From: Dictyostelium discoideum
Taxonomy: Eukaryota
Assembly: GCA_000004695.1 (NCBI GenBank)
Contig: CM000155.2
Coordinates: forward strand, 2,240,001 to 2,304,000
DNA: 64,000 nucleotides
Direction of reading: 5' to 3'
Shown: positions 46,132 through 63,151 of the stretch, in pieces
Numbering within the stretch: the stretch's first letter is position 1
Layout of the letters: every line of letters starts with the position of its first letter
Notes under the pieces: model-generated
Told to the model about the DNA's origin: nothing
What the model saw: the letters and a program-made list of their open reading frames with translations, nothing else
Database searches by the model: none
Translations under genes and position numbers: made by a program

Positions 46132-46204
46132 GGTTTTATAGTGTAATTGGTTAGCACCCAGGACTTTGAATCCTGTAATCTGAGTTCGAGTCTCAGTAGA
46201 ACCA
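46132..46204 (+). tRNA. tRNA-Gln (anticodon UUG)
   Basis: GGTTTTATAGTGTAATTGGTTAGCACCCAGGACTTTGAATCCTGTAATCTGAGTTCGAGTCTCAGTAGAACCA forms a cloverleaf. Acceptor GGTTTTA pairs with TAGAACC. The anticodon stem CAGGA/TCCTG has loop CTTTGAA, and the T arm is CTGAG-TTCGAGT-CTCAG. A T6 terminator follows. It closely resembles the eukaryotic tRNA-Gln(UUG) consensus. Confidence 0.88.
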
Positions 46205-46338
46205 TTTTTTTTTCTTAAAAATATTTTGACAGGTCACAGGTTCAAATCTTAAATTGGGTATCTACATAAAAAAAAATAAAGAAATAAATTTTGAGTAAAG
46301 ATCAAAAAAAGATTTTACACATTTTTTAAAATTTTTAA

Positions 46339-48074
46339 TTAAAAATTTGAAAAATTTAAATTTTTATTATTATTAAAATCATCTATTATTAAAGGTTTAT
46401 AACCATTAAATGACACACCAAAATTTTTTAAAAATTTATATTGAATGTCGGATAACTTAAATTGGTTTTCAATAACTGTTTGCTGATTTGATTTGTTTCT
46501 TTTTATATTTATTAAATATTCTAATAGAGAGTCATTTTGTAATTTTACAGATGATTTTAAAATTCTAATTAAAAGGTCACAAAATTCATTTTTAGATAAT
46601 AAAATAAAATCAATTAGTTTGATAGTGAAATAGTGATTATTGGATTGAATGAAAATTTCAAATATATATTCAATTTCCTTTTCACAGAAAAAACCAATTG
46701 AAATTAAATATAAAATAACCCTAGGGTTTGAAGCCAATAAATCATGTAATAATCTTTTCTTAAATGAGTTGCTTTTGTTTAAAACCAATTGTTTCTTTAA
46801 ATACTGATCAATAAAAAAGACCCAATTATTATTTATACAAAGAAATAAAATATTTAAAAATTCATTCTTTTCAAATTGAATTTGATTTTCAGAGTTTGAA
46901 ATTTCGGTTGACCACTTTTTTAAAATAAAAGGTAAAAGTTTTTTATTTGATTGATCATTACTTTCAAATAAATGATGATTTAAAGTTTTTGTTTTATATT
47001 CGAAGGTTTTTTTTGAAATGTAATCATTAAAGTATGGAAGACTATTCAATTTATTAAAAAATTTACATCTTGATACTCTGCAAAGAGGAGGTGATTGTAA
47101 TAATCTTTCAAACATATTTTCAAATAGATTTTTATTATCTTGAATCTTTAATGTTTTAACAAAATTCAAATTCAAGTTATTGAATAGTAATTGTTGATCA
47201 TATTTAATTGAGGATTCTAATAAAGCAAAATAATTATATACACTATTAATAATTTGAGATTGATTCTCGATTGAGGTTAATTGAATTTTAAAGTGATCAA
47301 ACCAATAATTTTCAAATAAATAATTTAAAATTTCTTGATGATTTTCATTTGCTACAGATATTAATAAAGTTAGCGGTGGTTTATAATATTTAGTATATAG
47401 TTTTACTAAAGGTAAATCATTTTGAATGGAAAATGTACGATTTGAATCAAAAATCTTTTGAAGATTTATACCATTTTTTAAAAAGAATTGAAACTTTTCA
47501 ACTGTTAAATATTCAGATGATGATAAACCTCTCCATATTGTCGTTGGTGCTTTCTTTGAAAGTTCAATTGCATTTGATAAATCATTATTTATACATGTTG
47601 GTAAAAATTTAATATTATTTATTAATGAATCGAATGCACGAGTTTTTAAAATGTATTGAGCAATACTTGGATCTTTAACTATAATTGAACTGGTATAGGA
47701 ATTCTTTAATTTCTTTATAAAATCATCAGGTAAAGAAATCATAACTTTTAAAAGTACCAACATTGATGATTTCATTAATGAACATGGTCTAATTTTAAAT
47801 TGATCAATGGTTTTAATTGAAACTTTTGTATCATAAACTTTTATTTTCGAATCAAAAGGATCCATATTTGAATTTAATTTTTTCTTAAAAATTTCTAAAA
47901 CCATTTTAAACATAAATTCATCACTGTATTCTATAATCTTTTCTAAAAATGTTAAATTTGAAGAATTTGATTCAAATAAACCAATTTTATTCAATACCAT
48001 AGGTCCAAACTCTTTTGATAATTTCTTTTCAACAATTTTTTCTAAAACTTTAAAAATTGATTCTTCAAAATTTA

Positions 48075-48129
<55 letters not shown>

Positions 48130-48645
48130 GTTATTAGCTTGAGGAGTTATTAAATCTAATAAAATTTTAAATCTTCTTTTAGAATCACAACTTGATGAGA
48201 ATGAAAATTTTTCTAAATTTTTACAATCATAAATTGTTGGATTAAATATATCTACAATAAATTTCAATGTTTCATAATTTTCTATTGAAACTAATAATGA
48301 ATCTAAAGAATTTGAAACTTTTTTAAATTGTTGTTCAATTTCAAATTGAAAAATCTTATAAATCTTGTAAAATATTTGAAAATCTAATTCCTTCCATTTA
48401 AATAATTTATATAAACAATAATAATTAAAATTTATAAAATGTTTATAATTATCTTTTTGAGAATTTTCAAATAAATAATTTAATTTCTCTATTAATAAAA
48501 CTTCATTCTTGGTTTTAATTATTAATGAAAGTGGAAATTCATAATAATTATATGTTAGATAATATTGATTACTAATTTTTAAAAATTGAAAAATTTTTTT
48601 CCTTAAAAATGAATTTCTATAAACTTTAAAAAATAAATCTCCCAT
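46339..48645 (-). CDS. Member 1 of a tandem lineage-specific paralog family, 768 aa (MGDLFFKVYRNSFLRKKIFQFLKISNQYYLTYNYYEFPLSLIIKTKNEVLLIEKLNYLFEN...). It is the most divergent copy and contains an N18 tract.
   Basis: It shares the roughly 100 aa N-terminal domain (LFxxVFxNxYLxxKIxxYI ... YNYY(D/E)FPLELxLKTKNxxLLIEKL ... FxxxCLxxLxxWxEL) and dispersed C-terminal similarity with the ORFs at 49490, 52229, 55609 and 58560. No known domain was recognised. Confidence 0.7.
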
Positions 48646-48715
48646 TTTAAATTTGTACTGTGCTTATTTAAAAAAAAAAAAAAAAAAGAAAAAATCAAAA
48701 AAAAAAAAAAAAAAA

Positions 48716-48748
<33 letters not shown>

Positions 48749-49489
48749 TAAAGATTTAATTATTTTATAAATAGAAAATTTAAAAAAAATTATTGTCCTT
48801 TTATTTTAAATTAAATATTAAATAAATAAAAATAAACATATACATATATATTAATTTTTGGTGATTATAAATTCAATCTTTAGCTTTATTACAAAAAAAA
48901 GTGGGTGAAAATAAGAAATTGTTTTTTTTTTATTTTTATTTTTTTTTCATTTTTTTTTTTATTTTTTTTTTAAAAAAGATAAAACATTGTTATTAACTTT
49001 TTTTTTATATCTTAAAATCATTAAGAGTTTCTAATTAAAAAAAAAAAAAAAAATTAAAAATAGAAATAAATAATAATAACTATTTTTTGAAATTATCAAT
49101 CTATTTTTATCTTTTTTTTTTTCAATTATCTAATTTGGGATATCTAAATTAAATTCCAAGATTAAAATAGTGTGTTATTGTTGGTTGATTCAATACCCCA
49201 AAAAAAATAAAAAAAAAAATAATAAAAAATCAGGTTCACTTAGAGACACTAGTTCTCATTAGTCGGGTCATTTTTTTTTTTTATTTCTTAAATTAATTGT
49301 GTTCAATTTTTTTTTTTTTTTTTTTTTTTTTAATAACCTTCTATATTTTGTTAATAAACTTTGAAATGTTCAACTATTTTTTTTTAAAAGTTTAAACTCT
49401 TTTTAATACAAATAAATAATAAAGGGTTATTTTCAAAATAAATTAAAATTAATAATTATTTTTTTTTTTTTTTTTTTTGAAGATAAATT

Positions 49490-51814
49490 TTATTTAAAAG
49501 TTAAAGAATAATTAAAAATAGTATTTAAATTTTTAATGAAAAAATTATAATGTTGAGAAGAAGTTTTTTTTGATAAATAATTAATTTTTGAATTATTAAT
49601 TGATAAATGACCAATTAAAAATAATTTAATTAAAATTTTATGTAAAATAAAACTATTACCTAGTTTTCTTTCTAATGAAATTGAACAAAATGATAAATCA
49701 TTTAAAAAACCACCATTATAAACAGAAATGAACAAAAGTTCAACATTTAAAGAAAAACCAAAAGATTTAATTTGAGAATTTGTAAAGATAATCGAATTTA
49801 AAATTGCAAAACGAATAATATTTAATGCAAAGGTTTTTGATCTCCATTTCGAAAGTCCTTTTAAAATATTTTCATTTGAAATTAATTGAGCAATTACAAA
49901 TTTAGAATTTTTTTTATTTATTTTACTAATTGAACTATAGATTTGACCTAAAATTTCGAAAACCATATTAGATACGATATCAGTATACACCTTTCTCAAT
50001 TGAGAATTGTAAAGCCACTTTCTTGCAGTTCCTGGGTTACTTTTTAACCATGACACAAACTCTGGATTAAATTTAAAATTTAGTATACTAATATCATAGA
50101 TTTTATTATCATCTTCTTGATTAAAAAAAAAAGAAGACCTTTCATCAAGTTCTACATAATGTTGTAAAATTATTGGTGAAATGTAATTAAAAAGGTCAAT
50201 TAAATTACATTGAATTGAATGAATTAACAATAAAATAAGATTTGTTTTAAAAAGTGATGGAGATGATCCATCACCAAAGCATATATTACCATGGTTGATA
50301 ATATTCTCTAAAAAACATTTATGTAATTCTTTATTACTACTACTACTGCCAGATTCAAATGCTTTTTTAATTTGATTATAATTATACTTTTTTGGAAACC
50401 TTTTAAAATAAGATTTTAATGCATTCACATCTTGATTCTTGATAATAACATTAAGAATTTCTAATGGATTATAAAAAAATGGTATTTCTTTTTCAAAAAG
50501 ATTTGATTCTATCATTTCTTTATTAACTGATTGTAAAAAGTAGTAATCAATATATTTGTGTTGTGGGAGTGGTAAAGTCTCAAACTTGACCTGTTCTCTT
50601 TTTCCAATTTTTCTAAGTTGGTAATCACAAACCCAAGAGATTTTAACATTATATAAGTTTTTTAATTCTTCAAAATAATTATCATTTAACCATATTGCTA
50701 CATCTGAATCATATATTAATCTTTGTTTGTGAATTGGTTCTTTATCTCTTTGAAAATATTTCCAGTAAAAATTTTTACATAAAACTTTTACAATATCTAG
50801 GTTAAAACTTTCAAAAATAAATCCAATTGGTATATCGAATGATTCCAATATCGATCTCTCTATACTAATTCCTAATAATTTCACAATTTCATCATTATTT
50901 TCTAATAGTGCTAAAGGTAACTTTGTTGGTGGTAGTGGTGTATATTTATATTTTTCTAATAATAATTTAAGCATAAATTGATCTTGGTATTTACTAATTG
51001 CACTAAATAAATTATTTATTGCTGAATAGAATGGATCATACAATATTTGAAATTTATTTGGGAAATATTCTAAAATTAGTGAACCAAATAGTTTTGATTG
51101 ATTTGTTTTAATTATATACTCTAAATAATGTACCAATTCTCTGAATGATACATCAATTTTTAATTCACTAAGGATGTATCTAAAAATTTCTTTTTTCTTT
51201 TTAATTTCATCATCATCATCATCATCATCACCATTTACTGTTCTTTTAAATTTATCAAACATTTTAAATATTGGTTCTATATCTATGGTTTCAATTTCGA
51301 GATACTTATTATTTATCAAGTATTTAAGTTTCTTTAAATCACAAATACCAATTATAATTGAATTATAATCAATTCTAACCAATCGAGCTATATATGGACT
51401 ATTATAATTTAATTTATTATGATATTTAATTTCCTTATTGGTTTTTTTAATTTGTTTATTAATTTCTGTTATTTCATTTTTAAATGTTTCAAAAACAATT
51501 TCAAATAATTCAAATGGTAATTCCCTCCATTTATATAATCTTTTTAAACAATATTCACTAAAATTTAAAAAATGTTTACTTTCTATTATTGATTTATTAT
51601 TATTATTATTATTATTATTTTTAAAATATTTATTATAATTATTTATTTTTTCAATTAATAATGGTTGATTTTTTGTTTTTAATATTAATTCAAGTGGGAA
51701 ATCATAATAGTTATATCCAATATATGTTTGTTCTTTATTGTGTTGTGTAATATATGAATAGATTTTATTGATTAAATATTTATTTTTGAATACTTTATAA
51801 AATAAAAAATCCAT
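49490..51814 (-). CDS. Member 2 of the paralog family, about 774 aa. It most likely starts at MDFLFYKVFKNKYL (ATG 51814). In-frame ATGs at 51821 and 51847 lie within an inverted-repeat arm.
   Basis: The ORF-track ORF 49490..51847 begins MIIFSPNPNMKMDFLF..., and the other paralogs begin MDLLF/MGDLFF. The N-terminal domain is conserved (YNYYDFPLELILKTKNQPLLIEKINNY). It lacks the Pro/Thr linker (YKYTPLPPTKLPLALLENNDEIVKLLGISIERS). Confidence 0.7.
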   Translation of the reverse strand: MDFLFYKVFKNKYLINKIYSYITQHNKEQTYIGYNYYDFPLELILKTKNQPLLIEKINNYNKYFKNNNNNNNNKSIIESKHFLNFSEYCLKRLYKWRELPFELFEIVFETFKNEITEINKQIKKTNKEIKYHNKLNYNSPYIARLVRIDYNSIIIGICDLKKLKYLINNKYLEIETIDIEPIFKMFDKFKRTVNGDDDDDDDEIKKKKEIFRYILSELKIDVSFRELVHYLEYIIKTNQSKLFGSLILEYFPNKFQILYDPFYSAINNLFSAISKYQDQFMLKLLLEKYKYTPLPPTKLPLALLENNDEIVKLLGISIERSILESFDIPIGFIFESFNLDIVKVLCKNFYWKYFQRDKEPIHKQRLIYDSDVAIWLNDNYFEELKNLYNVKISWVCDYQLRKIGKREQVKFETLPLPQHKYIDYYFLQSVNKEMIESNLFEKEIPFFYNPLEILNVIIKNQDVNALKSYFKRFPKKYNYNQIKKAFESGSSSSNKELHKCFLENIINHGNICFGDGSSPSLFKTNLILLLIHSIQCNLIDLFNYISPIILQHYVELDERSSFFFNQEDDNKIYDISILNFKFNPEFVSWLKSNPGTARKWLYNSQLRKVYTDIVSNMVFEILGQIYSSISKINKKNSKFVIAQLISNENILKGLSKWRSKTFALNIIRFAILNSIIFTNSQIKSFGFSLNVELLFISVYNGGFLNDLSFCSISLERKLGNSFILHKILIKLFLIGHLSINNSKINYLSKKTSSQHYNFFIKNLNTIFNYSLTFK

Positions 51815-52216
51815 TTTCATGTTTGGGTTGGGGGAGAAAATGATCATTTTTATTTTTTTTTTTTTTTTTTTATTTTTTTTTTTTTTTTATTAATTTATTA
51901 ATAAAAATTTTTTTTTTTTAACTTATTTTTTATTTTTTATTTTTTTATTTTTTTTTTTTTTTTTGTGATTTAATTTTATTTTTAGTATGAATTTAGTGGA
52001 GAGAACTCAAAATACACACGATATAATATATAAAAATTAATGTAATCATTCTGTTTATTTTTTTTGTTTTTTTTTTTTTATTTTTAGAATTCAATTATTT
52101 ATCATTCTTTTTTTTATGTAATTGTTTTTTTTTATTTTGAAAAGAGAGGGAATATATTTTATATCAATGATAAAAAAAAAAAAAAAAAAGATCATTTTCT
52201 CCCCCAACCCAAACAT
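51815..52216. repeat. MITE-like structure: a perfect 27 bp inverted repeat (atgtttgggttgggggagaaaatgatc / gatcattttctcccccaacccaaacat) flanking a roughly 340 bp AT-rich spacer
   Basis: Arm A at about 51822..51848 overlaps the 5' end of the member-2 ORF. Arm B at about 52189..52215 lies just 3' of member 3's stop (52229). The arms are exact reverse complements of each other. Confidence 0.55.
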
Positions 52217-52228
52217 TTTTTTTTTTAT

Positions 52229-52631
52229 TTAAAATTTTAATTTATTAAAATTTTTATTAAAAATAGTAATATTGTTATAACTAGCATTATGTATCATTGA
52301 AAAAGAAAATAATGCATTGATTTCTGGAAATTTATTTGTTGATGATATTGTTCTTAATAAACAATTATCTACATTTTTAAATGACATATATCCATTAAAA
52401 AACATTTTAATTAAAATTTTATGAAATACAAATCCTTTACCATTATTTTTATCCAAAAATGGTCTACAACATAATATTTCATTAATACTATTTTCATAAA
52501 ATGATTTTACCAAATTTTCATCATCGAAACCAAATGATTTGAATTGATTATCTGAATCTAAAACAATACCATTAATAACAGCAAAACGAATGATATTTAA
52601 AGGAATATTTTTCAAATCCTTTTTATTTTCA

Positions 52632-52669
<38 letters not shown>

Positions 52670-52673
52670 TTTA

Positions 52674-52768
<95 letters not shown>

Positions 52769-54702
52769 TTTATGATTATTATTATTAATATTTTCATACA
52801 TAATTTGATTTGATGTTAATTCTCTAATGATAAACTTTGAATCTGATTTTAAAGTTTTATTAATAATTTTATAATCAACTTTTTCATTTAAAATTTGAAA
52901 GACAGTGTGTGATAATGCATCAAAATAAAATGATTTTAAATGTGAATTGAAAAACCATTTTCTTGAGATATTATTATTTTTAGCACTTTTTAAACATTTA
53001 ATAAATTGGTGATTATATATAAAATCTTTTAAAGTAATCTTTTCATTATTCTTTATTGCTAATGAAATAAAATTAAAAAGTTCAAAAGAACCATAATCAA
53101 CACATGAAGCCAAAAATGAAATAATTGAATTCATATTATGATTTTTTGGAAAATTACAATTAAATATATTTTCTATAAAACAATTAAATAATTGTTTATT
53201 TCCACTATAAAATGCACTATTAACTTGATCGAAATTGTAATAATTTGGAAAAATATTAAAATAAGCAATCAATACTTCAACATTTTCTTCCTTTATTATA
53301 ATATCAACTAATGATGTTAAAAATGAATATTTATTATGAAGTTGTGCTAAAATTGAATATTCATTATAATTATTATTATTATTATTATTATGCTGTTGTA
53401 CTAAAAATTGTTCAGACTCTATCATTTCTTTATTGATAAAATCAAAATAACAATTTGCAATATATTGAAAAGTTTCAAATTTAACCTGTTCCCTTTTATT
53501 ATTGATTCTTAAATGTAAATCACATAGACATGAGATTTTAATTTCGTTTTTCTTTTTTTTTAATAATAAAAAATAATTATCACTTAAAAACAATGCAATT
53601 TTAGGGTCATATATTATTTGAATAGTTGAATTTCTATAAAATCTATCTGTTGTTTCATTGAATAAACTTGATTTTAATGCTTCACAAAGTACCTTTACAA
53701 TTTCTAAATCAAAATTGTTTAAAATAAATTCAAGTGGAAAATTCATTGCTTCTAAAGTTGATTTACTTATTCTAATACCTAACAATGTAAAAATTTCTGA
53801 TTCAGTTGTTGGTGTTAGTGTTGGTGTTGCTGTTGGTGGTGCAAGTGTTGTTGTTGTTGTTGTTTTTGTTGATGATGATGGTGGTGCAGGTGTTGTTGGT
53901 GCAAGTGTTGTTAGTGTTGGTGTTGGTGGTGGGGGTGGTGGTGGTGTTGGTGTTGTTGGTGGCGCAAGTGTTGTTAGTGTTAGTGTTGGTGTTGGTGTTG
54001 GTGTTGGTGTTGGTGTTGGTGTTGGTGTTGGTGGTGTTGGTGGTGTTGGTGGTGGTGTATATTTATATTTTTCTAATAATAATTTAAATATATATTGGTC
54101 TTTGTATTTAGAAATTATTTGAAATACATTGGTTAATTGATTATGTATAATTGGTAATTCTTTTGGGAATAAATCTATAATTTGTTTTCCAAAAATTTTC
54201 GATTGATCTTTAATCATAATTTCACATAAATATGTTGTTAATTGAGTAAATGATAAATCAATTTTAGATTCGTTTATTAAATATTGAAATATTTCTTTTA
54301 ATTTTATTTCTTCATCATGATGATCATGATTCACTTGGATTCTATAAATCATTTTTCTTTTTCTTTTTAATTTTCTTGAATGTATTAAACTAAAAACTGA
54401 ATTGATATTGATTGACTCAGTTTCGAGTAATTGATTATTTATTATATATTTGAGTTTATCTAAATCTCCATTAATGATTAGATAACTATGGTATAGTATT
54501 TTTTCTTTTCCATATTTATTTATTTTAATTTTTCCAATTATTTTTTCAATTTCTTTTTTAAATGTTTGAAAAATAAGTTCAAATAATTCTAATGATAATT
54601 CACTCCATTTATATAATAGTTTTAAACATTGTTCATTAAATGTTAAAAAATGTTTACTATTTAATATTGATATTTCTGAATATTTATTATTTTTATTATT
54701 AC

Positions 54703-54760
<58 letters not shown>

Positions 54761-54955
54761 TATAAAATATTTAATATAATTATTTAATTTTTCAATTAAT
54801 AATGGTTGATTCTTTGTTTTTAAAACAAGTTCTAATGGGAAATCATAATAGCTGTATCTGATTAATCTTTGTTCTTTATTATACTCTGAAATATATGAAT
54901 AGATTTTTTTCTTTAAATAAATATTTTTAAAAACCTGACTGAATAATAAATCCAT
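52229..54955 (-). CDS. Member 3 of the paralog family, 908 aa. It has the longest Pro/Thr-rich hypervariable linker (YTPPPTPPTPPTPTPTPTPTPTPTPTLTLTTLAPPTTPTPPPPPPPTPTLTTLAPTTPAPPSSSTKTTTTTTLAPPTATPTLTPTTESEIF) and a long Asn/Lys tract.
   Basis: It is over 80% identical to members 4 and 5 outside the linker and homopolymer regions. The linker is encoded by (ACACCA)n-type repeats, seen on the plus strand as (ggtgtt)n at 53811..54060. Confidence 0.7.
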
Positions 54956-55094: not shown

Positions 55095-55103
55095 ATCCCA
55101 CAA
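55095..55103 (+). promoter_or_regulatory. DUSE-like box (TCCCACAA), about 76-83 bp upstream of the Class I RNA at 55179
   Basis: The sequence caaaatcccacaaccaaaaa is present. The same box recurs at the same distance upstream of the second Class I RNA copy (58089..58096). Confidence 0.4.
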
Positions 55104-55178
55104 CCAAAAATAATAAAATATGTATCACGATATATATTAATAATTATAAAAATAATTAAATGTGCAAAAACACAAATA

Positions 55179-55239
55179 AGTTGACCTTACAGCAATCTTA
55201 ACAATTTTATCACATTATAAAAAAAAACCTCAGTCAACT
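55179..55239 (+). ncRNA. Class I RNA (Dictyostelid-specific small ncRNA), about 61 nt
   Basis: AAGTTGACCTTACAGCAATCTTAACAATTTTATCACATTATAAAAAAAAACCTCAGTCAACTG contains the exact 11 nt Class I motif CCTTACAGCAA, immediately 3' of a 5' stem strand (AGTTGAC). That strand pairs with the 3' end (GTCAACT). This is the published architecture of Class I RNAs. A DUSE-like TCCCACAA box lies upstream. Confidence 0.6.
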
Positions 55240-55608
55240 GTATAAAGTGATAAATTTTTTTAAGTTCCTAACTTCCGAATATTAAGAGAGGTCCGAGGTT
55301 CGAAACTCCGTATAGTAACCAATAAAAGTGACCCAAATGGGGCTCAGCTTAGTTGTAGGCCCACTAAAGCTAAAAACTACAAAAAACAATTTGAATCACC
55401 CAAAAACCAAAAACCAATCAAAAAAAAAAAAAAAAAGATTTAAAAAAAGAATGGAAAAAAAGTTATACATAACTTTTTTTTATTTAAAATTTTAATTTAT
55501 TAAAATTTTCATTAAAAATAGAAATATTATTATAACTAGAATTACGTATCATTGAAAAAGAAAATAAGGCATTGATTTCTGGAAATTTATTTGTTGATGA
55601 TAATGTTC

Positions 55609-57951
55609 TTAATGAACGATTTCCTTTATCTTTAAATGACATATATCCATTAAAAACATTTTAATTAAAATTTTATGAAATACAAATCCTTTACCATTAT
55701 TTTTATCCAATAATTGTTTACTACATAATATTTCATCAATACTATTTTCATATAACGATTTTACTAAATCTTCATCATCGAAACCAAATGATTTGAATTG
55801 GTTATCTGAATCTAAAACAATACCATTAATAACAGCAAAACGAATGATATTTAAAGGAATATTTTTCAAATCCTTTATATTTTCATTATTATTATTAATA
55901 TTATTATCATTATTATTACAATACATAATTTGGTTTGATATTAATTCTCCAATGATAAACTTTGAATCTGATTTTAAAGCTTTACGAATAATTCCATAAT
56001 CAACTTTTTTATTTAAAATTTGAAAGACTGTATGTGATAATGCATCAGAATAAATTGATTTTAAATGTGAATTGATAAACCATTTTCTTGAGATATTATT
56101 ATTATTTTTTGCACTTTTTAAACATTTAATAAATCGATAATTATTAATAAAATCATTTAAAGTAATCTTTTCATTATTCTTAATTGTTAATGAAATAAAA
56201 TTAAAAAGTTTAAAAGAACCATAATCGATACATGAAGCCAAAAATGAAATAATTGAAATTATATTATAATTGTATGGAAAATTACCATTAAATATATTTT
56301 CTATAAAACAATTAAATAATTGTTTATTTCCACTATAAAATGCACTATTAACTTGATCGAAATTGTAATAATTTGGAAAAATACTAAAATGAGCAATCAA
56401 TACTTCAACATTTTCTTCCTTTATTATAATATCAACTAATGATGTTAAAAATGGATATTTATTAAAATTAATTTGCTGTTGCGCTAATAATGAATTATTA
56501 TAATAATTATTAATATTATTATTATTTTGTCGTGCTAAAAATTGTTCAGACTCTATCATTTCTTTATTGATAGTATCAAAATAACAATTTAAAATATATT
56601 GAGAAGTTTCAAATTTAACCTGTTCCCTTTTACCAATGATTCTTAATTGTAAATCACATAGCCATGAGATTTTAATTTCATTTTTCTTTTTTTTTAATAA
56701 TAAAAAATAATTATCACTTAAAAACAATGCAATTTTAGGGTCATATATTATATGATTAGTTGGGCATGTATTGAATTTATCTGTTGTTTCATTGAATAAT
56801 CTTGATTTTAATGCTTCACAAAGTACCTTTACAATTTCTAAATCAAAATTGTTTAAAATAAATTCAAGTGGAAAATTCATTGCTTCTAAAGTTGATTTAC
56901 TTATTCTAATACCTAACAATGTAAAAATTTCTGATTCGGTTGTTGTTGATGTTGCTTTTGTTGCTGTTGTTGGTGGTACAAGTGTTGGTGTTGGTGTTTG
57001 TGTTGGTGTTGGTGTTGGTGTTGGTGGTGTTGGTGGTGTATATTTATATTTATCTAATAATAATTTAAATATATATTGATCTTTAAATTTAGAAATTATA
57101 TCAAATACATTGGTTAATTGCTTATGTATGATTGGTAATTCTTTTGGAAATAATTCTATAATTTGTTTTCCAAATATTTTCGATTGATCTGTAATCATAA
57201 TTTCACATAGATATGTTGTTAATTGAGTAAATGATAAATAAATTTTATATTCATTTATTAAATATTGAAATATTTCTTGTAATTTTATTTCTTCATCATG
57301 ATTCACTTGGATTGTAATTTCAGAACGAATCATTTTTCTTTTTCTTTTTAATTTTCTTGAATGTATTAAACTAAAAACTGAATTGATATTGATTGACTCA
57401 GTTTCGAGTAATTGATTATTTATTATATATTTGAGTTTATCTAAATCTCCATTACTGATTAAATTAATATGGTGTTGTATTTTTTCTTTTCCATCTTTAT
57501 TTATTTTTTTAATTTTTCCAATTATTTCTTCAATTTCTTTTTTAAATGTTTGAAAAATAAGTTCAAATAATTCTAATGATAATTCACCCCATTTATATAA
57601 TAGTTTTAAACATTGTTCATTAAATGTTAAAAAATGTTTACTATTTAATATTGATATTTCTGAATACTGATTATTATCGTTATTATTATTATTTTTATTA
57701 TTACTATTATTATTATTTTTTTTTTTATTACTATTATTTTTATTATTATTATTATTTTTAAAATATTTATTAAAATTATTTAATTTTTCAATTAATAATG
57801 GTTGATTCTTTGTTTTTAAAACGAGTTCTAATGGGAAATCATAATAGTTATATCTGATTAATCTTTGTTCTTTATTATACTCTGAAATATATGAATAGAT
57901 TTTTTTCTTTAAATAAATATTTTTAAAAACCTGACTGAATAATAAATCCAT
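55609..57951 (-). CDS. Member 4 of the paralog family, 780 aa as read. It has an apparent 1 bp deletion in a poly-A run near the 3' end, which truncates and alters the last roughly 45 residues relative to members 3 and 5. It has a short PT linker (YTPPTPPTPTPTPTQTPTPTLVPPTTATKATSTTTESEIF).
   Basis: The DNA downstream of the stop (55475..55608) still matches the C-terminal coding sequence of members 3 and 5 (…ccattaaaaacattttaattaaaatt versus …ccattaaaaaacaatttaattaaaatt). This indicates a frameshift, which is either a pseudogenising mutation or a homopolymer sequencing error. Confidence 0.6.
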   Translation of the reverse strand: MDLLFSQVFKNIYLKKKIYSYISEYNKEQRLIRYNYYDFPLELVLKTKNQPLLIEKLNNFNKYFKNNNNNKNNSNKKKNNNNSNNKNNNNNDNNQYSEISILNSKHFLTFNEQCLKLLYKWGELSLELFELIFQTFKKEIEEIIGKIKKINKDGKEKIQHHINLISNGDLDKLKYIINNQLLETESININSVFSLIHSRKLKRKRKMIRSEITIQVNHDEEIKLQEIFQYLINEYKIYLSFTQLTTYLCEIMITDQSKIFGKQIIELFPKELPIIHKQLTNVFDIISKFKDQYIFKLLLDKYKYTPPTPPTPTPTPTQTPTPTLVPPTTATKATSTTTESEIFTLLGIRISKSTLEAMNFPLEFILNNFDLEIVKVLCEALKSRLFNETTDKFNTCPTNHIIYDPKIALFLSDNYFLLLKKKKNEIKISWLCDLQLRIIGKREQVKFETSQYILNCYFDTINKEMIESEQFLARQNNNNINNYYNNSLLAQQQINFNKYPFLTSLVDIIIKEENVEVLIAHFSIFPNYYNFDQVNSAFYSGNKQLFNCFIENIFNGNFPYNYNIISIISFLASCIDYGSFKLFNFISLTIKNNEKITLNDFINNYRFIKCLKSAKNNNNISRKWFINSHLKSIYSDALSHTVFQILNKKVDYGIIRKALKSDSKFIIGELISNQIMYCNNNDNNINNNNENIKDLKNIPLNIIRFAVINGIVLDSDNQFKSFGFDDEDLVKSLYENSIDEILCSKQLLDKNNGKGFVFHKILIKMFLMDICHLKIKEIVH

Positions 57952-58088: not shown

Positions 58089-58096
58089 TCCCACAA
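58089..58096 (+). promoter_or_regulatory. DUSE-like box (TCCCACAA) upstream of the Class I RNA at 58171
   Basis: The sequence gaaaatcccacaaccaaaaa is present at the same spacing, about 75-82 bp, as in the first copy. Confidence 0.4.
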
Positions 58097-58170
58097 CCAA
58101 AAATTATAAATATTTATCAGGATATATATTAATTATTTTAAAAATAATTAAATGTGCAAAAACACAAATA

Positions 58171-58229
58171 AGTTGACCTTACAGCAATCTTAACAAAATT
58201 TTTTCTGAATAAAAAAACCTAAGTCAACT
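58171..58229 (+). ncRNA. Class I RNA, second copy, about 59 nt
   Basis: AGTTGACCTTACAGCAATCTTAACAAAATTTTTTCTGAATAAAAAAACCTAAGTCAACT has the same motif and terminal stem, with the internal loop region diverged. A 3'-end fragment (aaaacctaagtcaactgtatc) is duplicated again at about 58321..58341. Confidence 0.6.
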
Positions 58230-58559
58230 GTATCTTTTATAAAATTTTTTCTAAAACCTAAGTCTTTTTTTTTTGAATTGGATAACGCAATTATTATTTG
58301 CTTCTCCTTGAGGTTATTCTAAAACCTAAGTCAACTGTATCTTTATAAAATTTTTTAAGGTTCGAACTCCCAAGCTAAAGATGTCCTAGGTTCGAAACTC
58401 GGTCACGAATCAAATTAATGTGACCCAAAATGGGGCTCACCTTGTTGTAGTCTTACTAAAGCTAAAAACAATCAAACCACCCAAAAACAGTAAAAAACTA
58501 AAAACCAACCAACATTCAAATTTAAAAAAGAATGGAAAAAAGTTATATATAAATATATT

Positions 58560-58982
58560 TTAAAATTTTAATTTATTAAAATCTTCATTAAAAATAGTAA
58601 TATTGTTATAATTAGCATTACGTATCATTGAAAAAGAAATTAATGCATTGATTTCTGGAAATTTATTTGTTGATGATAATGTTCTTAATAAACGATTTCC
58701 TTTAACTTTAAATGACATATATCCATTAAAAAACAATTTAATTAAAATTCTATGAAATACAAATCCTCTACCATTATTTTTATCCAATAATGGTCTACTA
58801 CATAATATTTCATTGATACTATTTTCATAAAATGATTTTACCAAATTTTCATCATCGAAACCAAATGATTTGAATTGAATATCTGAATCTAAAACAATAC
58901 CATTAATAACAGCAAAACGAATGATATTTAAAGGAATATTTTTCAAATCCATTTTATTTTCATTATTATTTTCATTATTGTA

Positions 58983-59072
<90 letters not shown>

Positions 59073-61019
59073 ATATATAATTTGGTTTGATGTTAATTCT
59101 CTAATGATAAACTTTGAATCTGATTTTAAAGCTTTATGAGTAATTCTATAATCGACTTTTTTGTTTAAAATTTGAAAGACAGTATGTGATAATGCATCAA
59201 AATAAAATGATTTTAAATGTGAATTGATAAACCATTTTCTTGAGATATTATTATTACTTTTAACACTTTTTAAACATTCAATAAATTGATAATTACTAAT
59301 AAAATATTCTATACTAATATTTTCATTATTCTTTATTGTTAATGAAATAAAATTAAAAAGTTTGAAAGAACCATAATCGATACATGAAGCCAAAAATGAA
59401 ATAATTGAAAATATATTATAATTGTATGGAAAATTACCATTAAATATATTTTCTATAAAACAATTAAATAATTGTTTATTTCCACTATAAAATGCATTAT
59501 TAACTTGATTGAAATTGTAATAATTTGGAAAAATATTAAAATAAGCAATCAATGCTCCAACATCTTCTTCCATTACTATAATATCAACAAATGATGTTAA
59601 AAATGAATAATTATTATTATAATAATTATTATGCTGTTGTGCTAAAAATTGTTCAGACTCTATCATTTCTTTATTGATAAAATCAAAATAACAATTTGCA
59701 ATATATTGAGAAGTTTCAAATTTAACCTGTTCCCTTTTACCAACGATTCTTAATCGTAAATCACATAGCCATGAGATTTTAATTTCGTTTTTCTTTTTTT
59801 TTAATAATAAAAAATAATTATCACTTAAAAACAATGCAATTTTAGGGTCATATATTATTTGAATAGTTGAATTTGTATTAAATTTATCTGTTGTTTCATT
59901 GAGTAATCTTGATTTTAATGCTTCGCAAAGTACCTTTACAATTTCTAAATCAAAATTGTTTAAAATAAATTCAAGTGGGAAATTCATTGCTTCTAAAGTT
60001 GATTTACTTATTCTAATACCTAACAATGTAAAAATTTCTGATTCGGTTGTTGTTGGTGTTGGTGTTGGTGTTGGTGTTGGTTTTTTTGTTGGTGTTTGTG
60101 GTGGTACAAGTGTTGGTGTTGGTGTTGGTGGTGGTGTTGGTGGTGTTGGTGGTGGTGTATATTTATATTTATCTAATAATAATTTAAATATAAATTGGTC
60201 TTTGTATTTAGAAATTATTTGAAATACATTGGTTAATTGATTATGTATAATTGGTAATTCTTTTGGAAATAATTCTATAATTTGTTTTCCAAATATTTTC
60301 GATTGATCTTTAATCATAATTTCACATAAATATGTTGTTAATTGAGTGAATGATAAATCAATTTTTGATTCTTTTATTAAATATTGAAATATTTCTTGTA
60401 ATTTTATTTCTTCATCATGATGATCATGATTCACTTGGATTGTAATTTCAGAACGAATCATTTTTCTTTTTCTTTTTAATTTTCTTGAATGTATTAAACT
60501 AAAAACTGAATTGAAGTTGATTGATTCAGTTTCGAGTAATTGATTATCTATTATATATTTGAGTTTATCTAAATCTCCATTACTGATTAAATTAATATGG
60601 TGTTGTATTTTTTCTTTTCTATATTTATTTATTTTTTTAATTTTTCCAATTAATTTCTCAATTTCTTTTTTAAATGTTTGAAAAATAAGTTCAAATAATT
60701 CTAATGGTAATTCACTCCATTTATATAATAGTTTTAAACATTGTTCATTAAATGTTAAAAAATGTTTACTATTTAATATTGATATTTCTGAATACTGATT
60801 ATTATTATTATTAATATTATTATTTTTAAAATATTTATTATAATTATTTAATTTTTCAATTAATAATGGTTGATTCTTTGTTTTTAAAACGAGTTCTAAT
60901 GGGAAATCATAATAGTTATATCTGATAGATCTCTGTTCTTTATTATACTCTGAAATATATGAATAGATTTTTTTCTTTAAATAAATATTTTTAAAAACCT
61001 GACTGAATAATAAATCCAT
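58560..61019 (-). CDS. Member 5 of the paralog family, 819 aa. Its PT linker reads YTPPPTPPTPPPTPTPTLVPPQTPTKKPTPTPTPTPTTTESEIF, and it has an N30 tract.
   Basis: Outside the linker it is near-identical to members 3 and 4 in sequence and domain order. The full C-terminus is intact (…LRTLSSTNKFPEINALISFSMIRNANYNNITIFNEDFNKLKF*). Confidence 0.7.
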
Positions 61020-61095
61020 ATTATATATAAAAAAAAAAAAGAAAAAGAAGTTTTTTTTTTTTTTACAAATTGTTGTAGGGAATTTTCAATAAAAT

Positions 61096-61153
61096 TTCAC
61101 TACAGTAGCGTAGTGAATTTTATTATTTAATTTCACTACAGTAGCGTAGTGAA
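61096..61153. promoter_or_regulatory. Two tandem copies, 36 bp apart, of a 22 nt perfect hairpin palindrome ttcactac-agtagc-gtagtgaa. They lie about 75-130 bp upstream of the member-5 start codon.
   Basis: The rc of ttcactac is gtagtgaa, giving an 8 bp stem and a 6 nt loop. The copies are at 61096..61117 and 61132..61153. The element is not present upstream of the other paralogs. Confidence 0.3.
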
Positions 61154-61580
61154 AAAAAAAAATCACTGACCCTAAATTTTTTTTTTTTTCAAAAAACAAA
61201 TAAAGTTTATTAAATTATTATCTTTTATTTGAATATTAGCTCTATTTAAGGTTTTTTAATTTTTTTTTTTTAATTTAATTTTTTTTTTTTTTAATTTAAT
61301 TTTTTTTTTTTTTTTTGCGCCAAAATTTTTTTTTTTTTTCCCCAACAAAACTTTTTTTTTTTTTTTTTTTTTTTTTATTTTCATTTTCCCAAAATGAAAC
61401 AAGATAAATTATTTAAAATTTATTGAAGATAATAATTTTGAAAATACTAAACATAAAAATTATAAATTTTTACATGATGAGTAAATATTTTTCCTTACCA
61501 TAACACAATCATTTTTTAAATTCTGACCAATAAAAAACAGAAACAGAAAAGAAAAATTATTTAGAATTGAAAAAAAAGTC

Positions 61581-62424
61581 ATGAATTGTGGCGGAGATAG
61601 AAATATATCAAAAGAAGTGTGTTTAGAAGTAATTAATGATTATAGAATGGTATCACTCTGGGAAGAAATGCATAAAGGTCATATAGGAAGAGATGCAACC
61701 TATGGGAACTACAAGACTAAATATTATAATATGGGATTGTATTCTTTTGTATCTGATGCAGTAGATACGTGTGACATTTGCCAACGAAATAGAATAAAAG
61801 GTTTGGTATCAATCATTTTTTATATGATGTTTTGTAACTTTTATATTAAAACTCTGTGAAAGTATGGCACTGCGATAATGGACGTGAATTTAAAAACAAA
61901 GTCCAAAAAGAATTCCTAAAACTTTTTCCAGGCTCCAAGTCAGCACATGGAGCTCCTCGTACACCAACAACTCAAGGTATGGTAGAAAGATTGAATCGAA
62001 CTATCAAGGAGAGGATCTCAAAATTAAAACAACAAGAGTATGATATTGTGAACAATATAAATTATCGATATGTTTATTAATTAATCATTTATAAATAAAT
62101 TTTAGTTTTCTTGATGGTACTTCTAGGTCTCTTTCTGAACTATTAAAACAAGCTTTGTATGATTACAATAATACAAAAACAAGAACAATTAAAATGACAC
62201 CATCTCAAGCTGTTGGTATTGTTCCTTTGTTTATTAATGTTCAATCAGAACAAGACTCTCAATCAATTGGTGTTTCAGATGTTTCAAAAGAAGAAAGAAC
62301 AGCTATTATTCTTGAAAATCTCACAAGTTACCAAAATCAATGGAATTCAAAACCACCAAAGGGATTGAAAGTTGGTGATACTGTACTCTTTCTAGAAATT
62401 AAAAAAAATAATGTAAGTAATTAA
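61581..62424 (+). mobile_element. Degenerate internally deleted remnant of a Ty3/gypsy-type LTR retrotransposon integrase (skipper/DGLT-A-like)
   Basis: Three consecutive ORF fragments lie in pol order. The first has an HHCC zinc finger (HKGHIGRDATY...CDICQRNR). The second has the distal catalytic core (WHCDNGREFKN...GAPRTPTTQGMVERLNRTIKE). The third has the C-terminal region (YNNTKTRTIKMTPSQAVG). They are separated by stops and frameshifts. The first two-thirds of the D,D(35)E core is missing. GC content is locally elevated. The remnant abuts an assembly gap. Confidence 0.6.
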
Positions 62425-62702
62425 AACATAAAGATTAATAATATATGAAACAGTAATAATTATCAAATTTTATATTTAATTCTAATAGATAATATTGATT
62501 TTAGGTATAATAATAAGGGGGTTCTGGAAGACACTATACTGCTCTATAAACTTGAGTTTTTGGAAGACGGACTAATCGCCTGAATACAAGGTCATACTCT
62601 GTGTTGGNGAAGGGAACAAACCATGGATGTTTATAACATGCGAACTTGATATTGTTAGAGCATTGTCCTCATACATGAAGATACNGACTCTTTTACTTCT
62701 GG

Positions 62703-62802
62703 NNNNNNNNNNNNNNNNNNNNNNNNNNNNNNNNNNNNNNNNNNNNNNNNNNNNNNNNNNNNNNNNNNNNNNNNNNNNNNNNNNNNNNNNNNNNNNNNNN
62801 NN
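62703..62802. other. Assembly gap (100 N)
   Basis: There is a run of n characters. Isolated n also occur at 35993, 62588 and 62685. Confidence 0.95.
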
Positions 62803-63151
62803 TATTAAAAGTTTCAAAATCTAATTCCTTCCAAACTAGTAATGATTTTAAACATTCTTTATTAAAATCTAAATAATATTTGGTAATGATACTACTACTG
62901 CTAATGACTTCATCATCATTTGATTCACCTTTGATTATATATTTATTATAAAATTTAATTTTCTCTAATAGTAATATTTGATTTCTACTCTTTATTACCA
63001 TCTCTAATGGGAATTCGTAAAAATTATATGTTAAATATAATAAACTCTCATTATATTGTCTAATAAATTTAAATATAATATTATTTAAATAATTATTTTT
63101 AAAAACACTAAAAAATAATGTATCCATTGAAAAATGTAAAAAAAAATGCAA
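62803..63151 (-). CDS. N-terminal fragment of a sixth paralog-family member (MHFFLHFSMDTLFFSVFKNNYLNNIIFKFIRQYNESLLYLTYNFYEFPLEMVIKSRNQILLLEKIKFYNKYI...), truncated by the assembly gap
   Basis: The family N-terminal domain is recognisable. The ORF runs into the N block. Confidence 0.4.

Follow-up and report, generated by a model that had tools for sequence, protein, structure and literature searches.

DdR-60, a Class I RNA gene within a tandem protein-gene array of Dictyostelium discoideum, and the partial copy of its 3′ end

We analyzed a 64-kb stretch of Dictyostelium discoideum AX4 DNA, hereafter the window, whose numbering is used throughout. Judged from the published positions of DdR-59 and DdR-60, its numbering is offset by 2,240,000 from that of chromosome 6, of which it spans about 2,240,001-2,304,000. 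An Rfam scan of the full 64-kb window gave a match to RF01414 (Dictyostelium Class I RNA) at 58172-58230 on the plus strand, with a score of 53.5 bits against a gathering score of 41.5 bits. This segment is base-for-base identical to the curated gene DdR-60 (r60) in the file ddi_curated.fa of Kjellin et al. 2021 (PMC7919456), and Table S3 of the same work places DdR-60 on the plus strand of chromosome 6 (DDB0232433) at 2298170-2298230. A second member of the family, DdR-59, lies 2,992 bp upstream of DdR-60 and is listed in Table S3 at 2295178-2295240 of chromosome 6, also on the plus strand (PMC7919456). An earlier note, based on the sequence alone, had proposed that a Class I RNA copy with the same stem and motif recurs 2.99 kb downstream of the first, and the scores of 53.5 and 57.0 bits together with the exact identities to DdR-60 and DdR-59 bear this out. 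The DdR-60 gene itself is thus already catalogued, mapped and known to be expressed, and is not new. The elements of the two genes are as follows.

58089..58096, plus strand: DUSE (Dictyostelium upstream sequence element) TCCCACAA, putative promoter element of DdR-60, found by pattern search
58150..58156, plus strand: TGTG box AAATGTG, read from the sequence, 61 nt past the start of the DUSE
58172..58231, plus strand: mature Class I RNA DdR-60 (Rfam, curated identity, fold and RNA-seq)
58172-58177, plus strand: 5′ stem half of DdR-60, GUUGAC
58177-58187, plus strand: 11-nt signature motif of DdR-60, CCUUACAGCAA
58223-58228, plus strand: 3′ stem half of DdR-60, GUCAAC
58228-58231, plus strand: 3′ end of DdR-60, CUGU (genomic CTGT)
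58235-58238 (T4) and 58245-58250 (T6), plus strand: T runs just 3′ of DdR-60, candidate Pol III-type terminators, read from the sequence
55096-55103, plus strand: DUSE TCCCACAA of DdR-59, found by pattern search
55158-55164, plus strand: TGTG box AAATGTG of DdR-59, read from the sequence
55180..55241, plus strand: DdR-59 RNA (Rfam, 57.0 bits at 55180-55240; exact identity to curated DdR-59)

Class I RNAs are 42 to 65 nt long, with genomic CTGT at the 3′ end; a further criterion for their genes is a DUSE some 60 nt ahead of the transcription start or of a TGTG box. They are cytoplasmic and developmentally regulated. The DUSE is needed for their expression, and the TGTG box either serves as a second promoter element or marks where a precursor begins. 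Transcription by Pol III is suspected because T runs are found 3′ of many members (PMC7919456). DdR-60 has the 5′ G, the stem, the motif, the CUGU end, both upstream boxes and a length of 59 nt as curated, or 59-60 nt when the terminal U of CUGU is counted. Its 5′ end is 22 nt past the start of the TGTG box. The r60 entry in Table S2 gives a matching DUSE sequence and distance, with TGTG-box_seq AAATGTG and an inter_dist of 60 (PMC7919456). The 6-bp terminal stem GUUGAC/GUCAAC is present in both the minimum-free-energy and the centroid fold, and the exact 11-nt motif CCTTACAGCAA occurs twice in the 64-kb window, at 55185 and 58177. The stem is also supported at the level of the family: when 22 distinct stems, drawn from D. 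discoideum, D. firmibasis and the fetched loci, were compared, pairing was seen in 95.5% of cells and compensatory changes in four of the six pairs, a result that none of 500 shuffles equalled. With the prototype DdR-21 and RF01414, DdR-60 has in common the 5′ G, the 6-bp stem, CCUUACAGCAA, CUGU and the length of about 60 nt, and with the family at large the intergenic location, the DUSE and TGTG box and high expression; no defining feature differs, DdR-60 being a listed member. A scan for bacterial-type promoters and terminators, irrelevant to a eukaryotic host, returned nothing above shuffles.

According to the family model in the literature, the elements of which we checked in the sequence, transcription of DdR-60 would be driven through the upstream DUSE, and the AAATGTG box 60 nt past it would act as a second promoter element or mark the start of a short precursor. 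The mature RNA of about 60 nt would begin at the conserved G and finish in CUGU, its ends paired in the 6-bp stem, with single-stranded CCUUACAGCAA beside the terminal stem as the family signature. For DdR-21, binding to the RRM protein Rnp1A (CIBP) is on record, and early development is disturbed when this RNA is lost. By the family model, cytoplasmic DdR-60 would bind Rnp1A (CIBP) as well and influence early multicellular development; the binding and the knockout phenotype have been published for DdR-21 only.

The two genes are close to identical at their ends and in their upstream regions. From the DUSE to the RNA start, 78 of 83 positions are the same (94%), as are the first 25 nt of the RNA (25/25) and 15 of its last 16 nt, with a rearranged loop in between; the downstream flanks are about 80% identical once an extra block behind DdR-60 is taken out. 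The spacing of the DUSE-like box, which the earlier note took to be identical, is 1 nt shorter in the second copy although the box itself, TCCCACAA, is present in both: by the published measure, the distance from DUSE to RNA start is 75 nt for DdR-59 and 74 nt for DdR-60, and that from DUSE to TGTG box 61 nt and 60 nt, respectively (PMC7919456). The TGTG box AAATGTG was absent from that note, as was a shorter copy of the 3′ part of DdR-60 at 58249-58264.

Both copies are expressed in published RNA-seq libraries, each with 'read coverage = 1' in Table S2 (PMC7919456). Reads per library range from 543,127 to 1,555,072 for DdR-60 and from 3,416 to 7,833 for DdR-59, i.e., about 160-200 times more for DdR-60. 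By abundance among Class I RNAs, DdR-60 is surpassed by DdR-21 alone at both 4 h and 8 h and takes third place at 0 h, and DdR-59 is weakly expressed despite having the best classifier score (PMC7919456). DdR-60 is no dead copy, nor is it an artefact of assembly, and the gene pair cannot be put down to misassembly because the two sequences are distinct and their reads were counted separately.

DdR-59 and DdR-60 sit in an array of paralogous protein genes on the opposite strand. Five minus-strand ORFs of this family lie at 46339-48645, 49490-51847, 52229-54955, 55609-57951 and 58560-61019, and the search of Pfam found no domain in any of the five proteins. The last three ORFs form a young sub-array.

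52229..54955, minus strand: array paralog, 908-aa ORF (ORF list)
55609..57951, minus strand: DDB_G0292934, hypothetical protein, 780 aa (ORF list, 100% match)
58560..61019, minus strand: third young array paralog, 819-aa ORF (ORF list)

Their coding sequences are 93-95% identical, the unit of the 908-aa paralog showing 93-94% nucleotide identity to the other two. The periods range from 2.95 to 3.4 kb, so that the repeating unit of about 3.3 kb described in the earlier note exists but has no fixed size. DdR-60 is 221 nt upstream of the DDB_G0292934 ATG and DdR-59 225 nt upstream of the ATG of the 908-aa paralog, each transcribed away from its neighbor. In AX4 an RNA gene is visible in only two of at least five array-family units. 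No Class I motif occurs in the spacers upstream of the older paralogs (48646-49489 and 51848-52228), nor is a Class I gene visible upstream of the third young unit, because there the spacer, in which homology is lost at about 61065, runs into a retroelement remnant and a gap. This interval, 61066-62802, contains a palindromic 24-mer, ATTTCACTACAGTAGCGTAGTGAA, twice (61095 and 61130), frameshifted LTR-retrotransposon integrase fragments (Integrase_H2C2 and rve_3, 61581-62040) and a 100-N assembly gap (62703-62802), after which comes a 5′ fragment of an array gene (62803-63136).

To compare the array with its counterparts in related genomes, we fetched homologous loci by means of the array protein and the single-copy neighbor DDB_G0292930. 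In two assemblies labelled D. discoideum, the homologous array includes five Class I genes (L001, GCA_054859385.1) and three (L003, GCA_054859355.1). All are of the same subfamily and lie antisense to and upstream of array genes. L003 has one unit fewer than L001. Between L001 and AX4, the orthologous array paralog is 95% identical in nucleotide sequence and the DDB_G0292930 ortholog 86% identical in amino acid sequence. A divergence of L001 and L003 from AX4 of about 5% in coding sequence, and of 14% in the DDB_G0292930 protein for L001, is far beyond that to be expected of strains of the same species. In L001, one RNA gene has a full 268-nt tandem duplicate, the second copy of which is degenerate (42.2 bits), and one unit has collapsed, its protein gene deleted except for the ends, leaving two RNA genes 550 nt apart. 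The changes in L001 span 5579-6672 and 9202-10000 and those in L003 12500-13400; the decaying second copy in L001, at 9472-9530, has the motif CCTTACTGCAA and a broken stem.

The arrangement extends to more distant relatives. In D. citrinum (L005) the neighbor gene is followed by tRNA-Gln and three array genes; 240 nt upstream of the last of these stands a Class I gene (49 bits), at the place that DdR-59 has in AX4. For D. firmibasis, whose syntenic sequence (L004) stops inside the third array gene and a short way before the pair, the pair is known here from published coordinates and sequences: DfiR-5 and DfiR-3 lie 2.9 kb apart on a single contig, in the same order and orientation as in AX4 (PMC7919456), where the spacing is 2.99 kb. 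Another sequence considered as the D. firmibasis counterpart, L002, was rejected, being a distant paralog at a non-syntenic place without a Class I gene. A tRNA gene with the same Rfam score as tRNA-Gln(UUG) of AX4 (46132-46204) lies between the DDB_G0292930 ortholog and the array in both D. citrinum (L005 12863-12935) and D. firmibasis (L004 14358-14430) and therefore marks conserved synteny. The D. firmibasis interval also holds an extra tRNA gene and, on the minus strand at 12675-12792 of L004, a U5 snRNA gene (60.4 bits); AX4 has no U5 gene at that position.

Comparison across these loci sorts the loops of the RNA genes into two types. The '59-type' loop (TTCGCAyAT…CCTCAG) is found in DdR-59, in the L001 copy at 6428, in the L003 copy at 13320 and in DfiR-5; the '60-type' loop (TTTTCTGAwTAAAAAAA) is found in DdR-60, four L001 copies, two L003 copies, DfiR-3 and the D. 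citrinum gene. The loops are therefore not unconstrained: while the divergence between the two AX4 loops pointed out in the earlier note is real, its view that only stem and motif are constrained does not hold, because the same two types recur across genomes. As judged from these alignments, the loop difference is old and has been maintained, with no free drift after a recent duplication. The order of the two types is also the same in D. firmibasis as in AX4. This conservation of two loop types is a modest new point.

The comparison suggests a tandem duplication of the whole unit of about 3 kb, comprising both the protein gene and the RNA gene. Since both loop types occur in all these lineages, this duplication would predate the split of D. 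discoideum from D. firmibasis and from the L001/L003 lineage. Set against this age, the identity of 93-94% between units within AX4, compared with 95% between orthologous neighbors of AX4 and L001, implies that some homogenisation has probably taken place. We therefore consider the feature to be DdR-60, a known functional Class I RNA gene copied together with its paralog unit, with the 3′ fragment behind it a later local event, and give this reading a probability of about 90%. The core of what had been proposed from the sequence alone, a real second Class I gene with a DUSE promoter that was copied with the paralog unit, is thus supported. Co-duplication applies to the RNA gene, as seen in the similarity of spacers and coding sequences and in the arrays of the relatives, but not to the fragment, which is local to the DdR-60 spacer. 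Likewise, the idea that expansion of the array also amplifies RNA genes agrees with the two to five copies among the relatives but not with AX4 as a whole, where just the two units mentioned carry one. Growth of the Class I family has so far only been suggested ('perhaps indicating expansion by duplication'). The array offers a concrete example, in which a protein gene repeated in tandem takes the RNA gene along with it, and the new detail is that a Class I gene forms part of a protein-gene array that grows and shrinks, with two copies in AX4, three in L003 and five in L001, the last with a tandem duplicate and a collapsed unit of its own.

The difference in expression between DdR-59 and DdR-60 was set against the 3′ flanks of the subfamily, for which we compared 11 genes (two from AX4, five from L001, three from L003 and one from D. 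citrinum). DdR-60 and the eight L001 and L003 genes, i.e., 9 of the 11, continue as CUGU(A/C)UCUUUU; in the D. citrinum gene, CUGUC is immediately followed by a T7 run. DdR-59 alone reads CUGUAUAAAGUGAUAAAUUUUUUU, without a T run close behind CUGU (55240-55270, compared with 58230-58250 for DdR-60). DdR-59 differs from DdR-60 in having the other loop type, in having lost the T4 after CUGU and in lacking a 106-nt block downstream. The expression gap, a single contrast, may reflect an effect on a Pol III-type terminator or on 3′-end formation. The pair represents a natural experiment, with nearly the same promoters, differing loops and 3′ flanks, and expression two orders of magnitude apart.

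A broader and rather improbable proposal is that the array is a co-amplification module for one Class I subfamily, in which unequal crossing-over would set the dose and loss of the T4 would explain the low expression of DdR-59. If so, an RNA gene and a fast-evolving protein gene would have a divergent control region of about 220 bp in common, and the dose of a top-ranked Class I RNA would vary among relatives (2, 3 and 5 genes). With two loop variants kept apart across species, the 'variable' loop would carry a function. If the part on the T4 holds, Pol III-type termination and 3′-end formation would be a main determinant of Class I RNA abundance.

A B-box-like motif, GGTTCGAAACTC (GTTCRANNC), occurs about 55 nt downstream of DdR-59, of DdR-60 as it stood before the insertion described below and of several L001 and L003 copies (window 55262-55310 and 58357-58400; L001 9396-9461, minus strand). 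In AX4 the inverted repeat whose right arm it forms is degenerate; in L001 this repeat is a perfect 20-bp hairpin. We rejected the motif as evidence for TFIIIC and did not rely on it, because the 11 instances of GTTCRANNC in the window are no enrichment over the 7.3 expected, all copies derive from one ancestral site, and none follows the D. citrinum gene. A fourth GGTTCGAA in the window (GTCCTTGGTTCGAAACT, 4750-4775) lies behind a long T run, in a context resembling that of the motif downstream of DdR-60, with no annotated RNA nearby. An external B-box-like GGTTCAAATCT is found about 35 nt downstream of tRNA-Gln(UUG) (46132-46204), at 46239-46249.

The alignment of the two AX4 spacers, which the earlier note had put forward as a check, located the extra sequence behind DdR-60 in a single 106-nt block, 58251-58356, present in the DdR-60 spacer only. 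Neither the DdR-59 spacer nor the L001 and L003 spacers compared contain it. The extra 3′ fragment proposed at about 58321 is there, as aaaacctaagtcaactgtatc at 58321-58341, and forms part of a 36-nt direct repeat. The block and its surroundings comprise the following.

58249..58264, plus strand: left copy of a 16-bp exact direct repeat, TTCTAAAACCTAAGTC, found among k-mer self-matches
58265..58316, plus strand: inserted sequence, T10 (58265-58274) plus about 42 nt of unique sequence, missing from the other spacers
58317..58356, plus strand: second partial copy, within a 36-nt repeat with a spacing of 107

The block is defined by three nested repeats. The first, of 20 nt with a spacing of 46 (58190-58209 and 58236-58255), includes AAAATTTTTT, which stands at 58195-58204 within the DdR-60 loop and again at 58241-58250. 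The second is the 36-nt direct repeat with a spacing of 107 (58214-58249 and 58321-58356), whose right copy reproduces the final 18 nt of DdR-60, CUGU among them (58321-58338), and 18 nt of its 3′ flank (58339-58356). The third, of 19 nt with a spacing of 68 (58249-58264 and 58317-58332), has 18 of 19 positions identical, 16 of them forming the exact match between 58317-58332 and the left copy. TTCTAAAACCTAAGTC includes a short copy of the 3′ part of DdR-60 (AAAACCTAAGTC) and is read as the left target-site duplication. Tandem Repeats Finder reported nothing in 58100-58450, because the copies are set apart by unique sequence. Taking out 58265-58332 leaves a clean tandem duplication of a 46-nt unit, 58205-58250, the second copy of which lacks 7 nt (GAATAAA) and one T; the piece taken out comprises T10, the unique sequence of about 42 nt and the right copy of the 16-bp repeat.

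The block is therefore best read, from its repeat structure, as a 46-nt tandem duplication that was later split by an insertion of about 52 nt flanked by the 16-bp repeat. In a first step, slippage between the AAAATTTTTT stretches at 58195-58204 and 58241-58250 would have duplicated the 46-nt unit, made up of the 3′ part of the RNA and its flank. In a second, a piece of about 52 nt with a T10/A10 run would have inserted into the new copy, generating the 16-bp target-site duplication. This two-step origin is less certain than the identity of the gene. The fragment carries the DdR-60-private CCTAAGTC state and is therefore young. At 58317-58356 there is no GTTGAC, no CCTTACAGCAA, no upstream DUSE or TGTG box and no Rfam hit at E≤5, and the fold of the region is unlike that of a Class I RNA. 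The fragment is most likely inert, and its anatomy and probable origin add a minor new detail.

The insert 58265-58316 ends in A10 on the minus strand. Together, the T10/A10 run and the 16-bp repeat would be the signature of a heavily 5′-truncated poly(A) retro-insertion. Non-LTR elements of D. discoideum have poly(A) ends, 5′ truncations and target-site duplications of variable length (PMC5391098, PMC5006619), and a poly(A) end with a flanking target-site duplication, by which TRE-type insertions are recognized, is found at 58265-58316. With TRE3-type insertions downstream of Pol III genes the insert has in common a homopolymer end facing the small RNA gene, extreme 5′ truncation with a flanking direct repeat, and a site a few tens of nucleotides downstream of a suspected Pol III gene. 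It differs in being only about 52 nt long and in that its target is not a tRNA gene; the likeness is one of structure. A source for the insert was sought in the window and the five fetched loci, which held no match, and a retroelement origin is a candidate. A resemblance to an L001 flank (GGATAA..GCAAT) was rejected, as its score of 24, set against shuffles at 17.6 ± 2.8, lies below the shuffle maximum of 34.

Instead of two steps, the 106-nt block might have arisen in one, by error-prone repair of a break with template switching and without a mobile element. The repeated pieces could all have been copied from within 110 nt, the junctions lie at short homologies (AAAATTTTTT and TTCT), and neither the window nor the fetched loci provided a transposon-like source of the unique part. 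As the origin of the insert was not found, this is a fair rival, which we nevertheless hold to be possible rather than probable: about 42 nt of the insert have no nearby template, and a homopolymer abutting a perfect 16-bp repeat is more typical of target-primed reverse transcription (PMC5391098).

The fragment could also be the relic of a full second tandem Class I gene whose promoter and 5′ half were removed by a deletion between AAAATTTTTT stretches. Such a second gene, the degenerate copy of 42.2 bits 268 nt downstream, exists in the homologous spacer of L001, and a deletion between the 10-nt repeats would yield the same junction as the 46-nt duplication. However, the fragment is nearly identical to the 3′ end and flank of DdR-60, apart from one T-run indel and the 7-nt deletion, and has the DdR-60-private CCTAAGTC state, whereas over the same stretch about 9 of 37 positions distinguish the tandem copies in L001 from each other. 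In addition, no trace of the B-box-like region or of a promoter is left between DdR-60 and the fragment, whereas L001 has both there. A relic is thus the less likely origin, since the fragment matches the DdR-60 end so closely while the L001 tandem copies have diverged, and we regard it as quite unlikely. Finally, that the second copy or the fragment is an artefact of assembling a repetitive region near a gap, the outcome that would have undone the earlier note, is very improbable: an N-run gap and retroelement debris do lie about 3-4.5 kb away (61066-62802), but DdR-59 and DdR-60 are two distinct transcripts, counted separately in RNA-seq (PMC7919456), and the array architecture recurs in independent assemblies of related genomes, a confirmation that covers all but the 106-nt block.

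Another close pair of noncoding RNA genes lies in the window. Two nearly identical U3 snoRNA genes, at 28599-28807 and 30802-31010 (90 bits each), are 2.2 kb apart, each with a DUSE, TCCCATAA, 63 nt upstream (28536 and 30739). Two other DUSE matches, at 35238 and 40092, were dismissed as chance occurrences, one falling within a coding ORF and the other in the stretch leading to the ATG of a gene. The U3 genes resemble the Class I pair in being close, tandem, nearly identical and DUSE-driven, and snRNA gene pairs of D. discoideum have likewise been described as close tandem DUSE-driven pairs. The Class I pair differs from them in being embedded in a protein-gene array and in its diverged loop.
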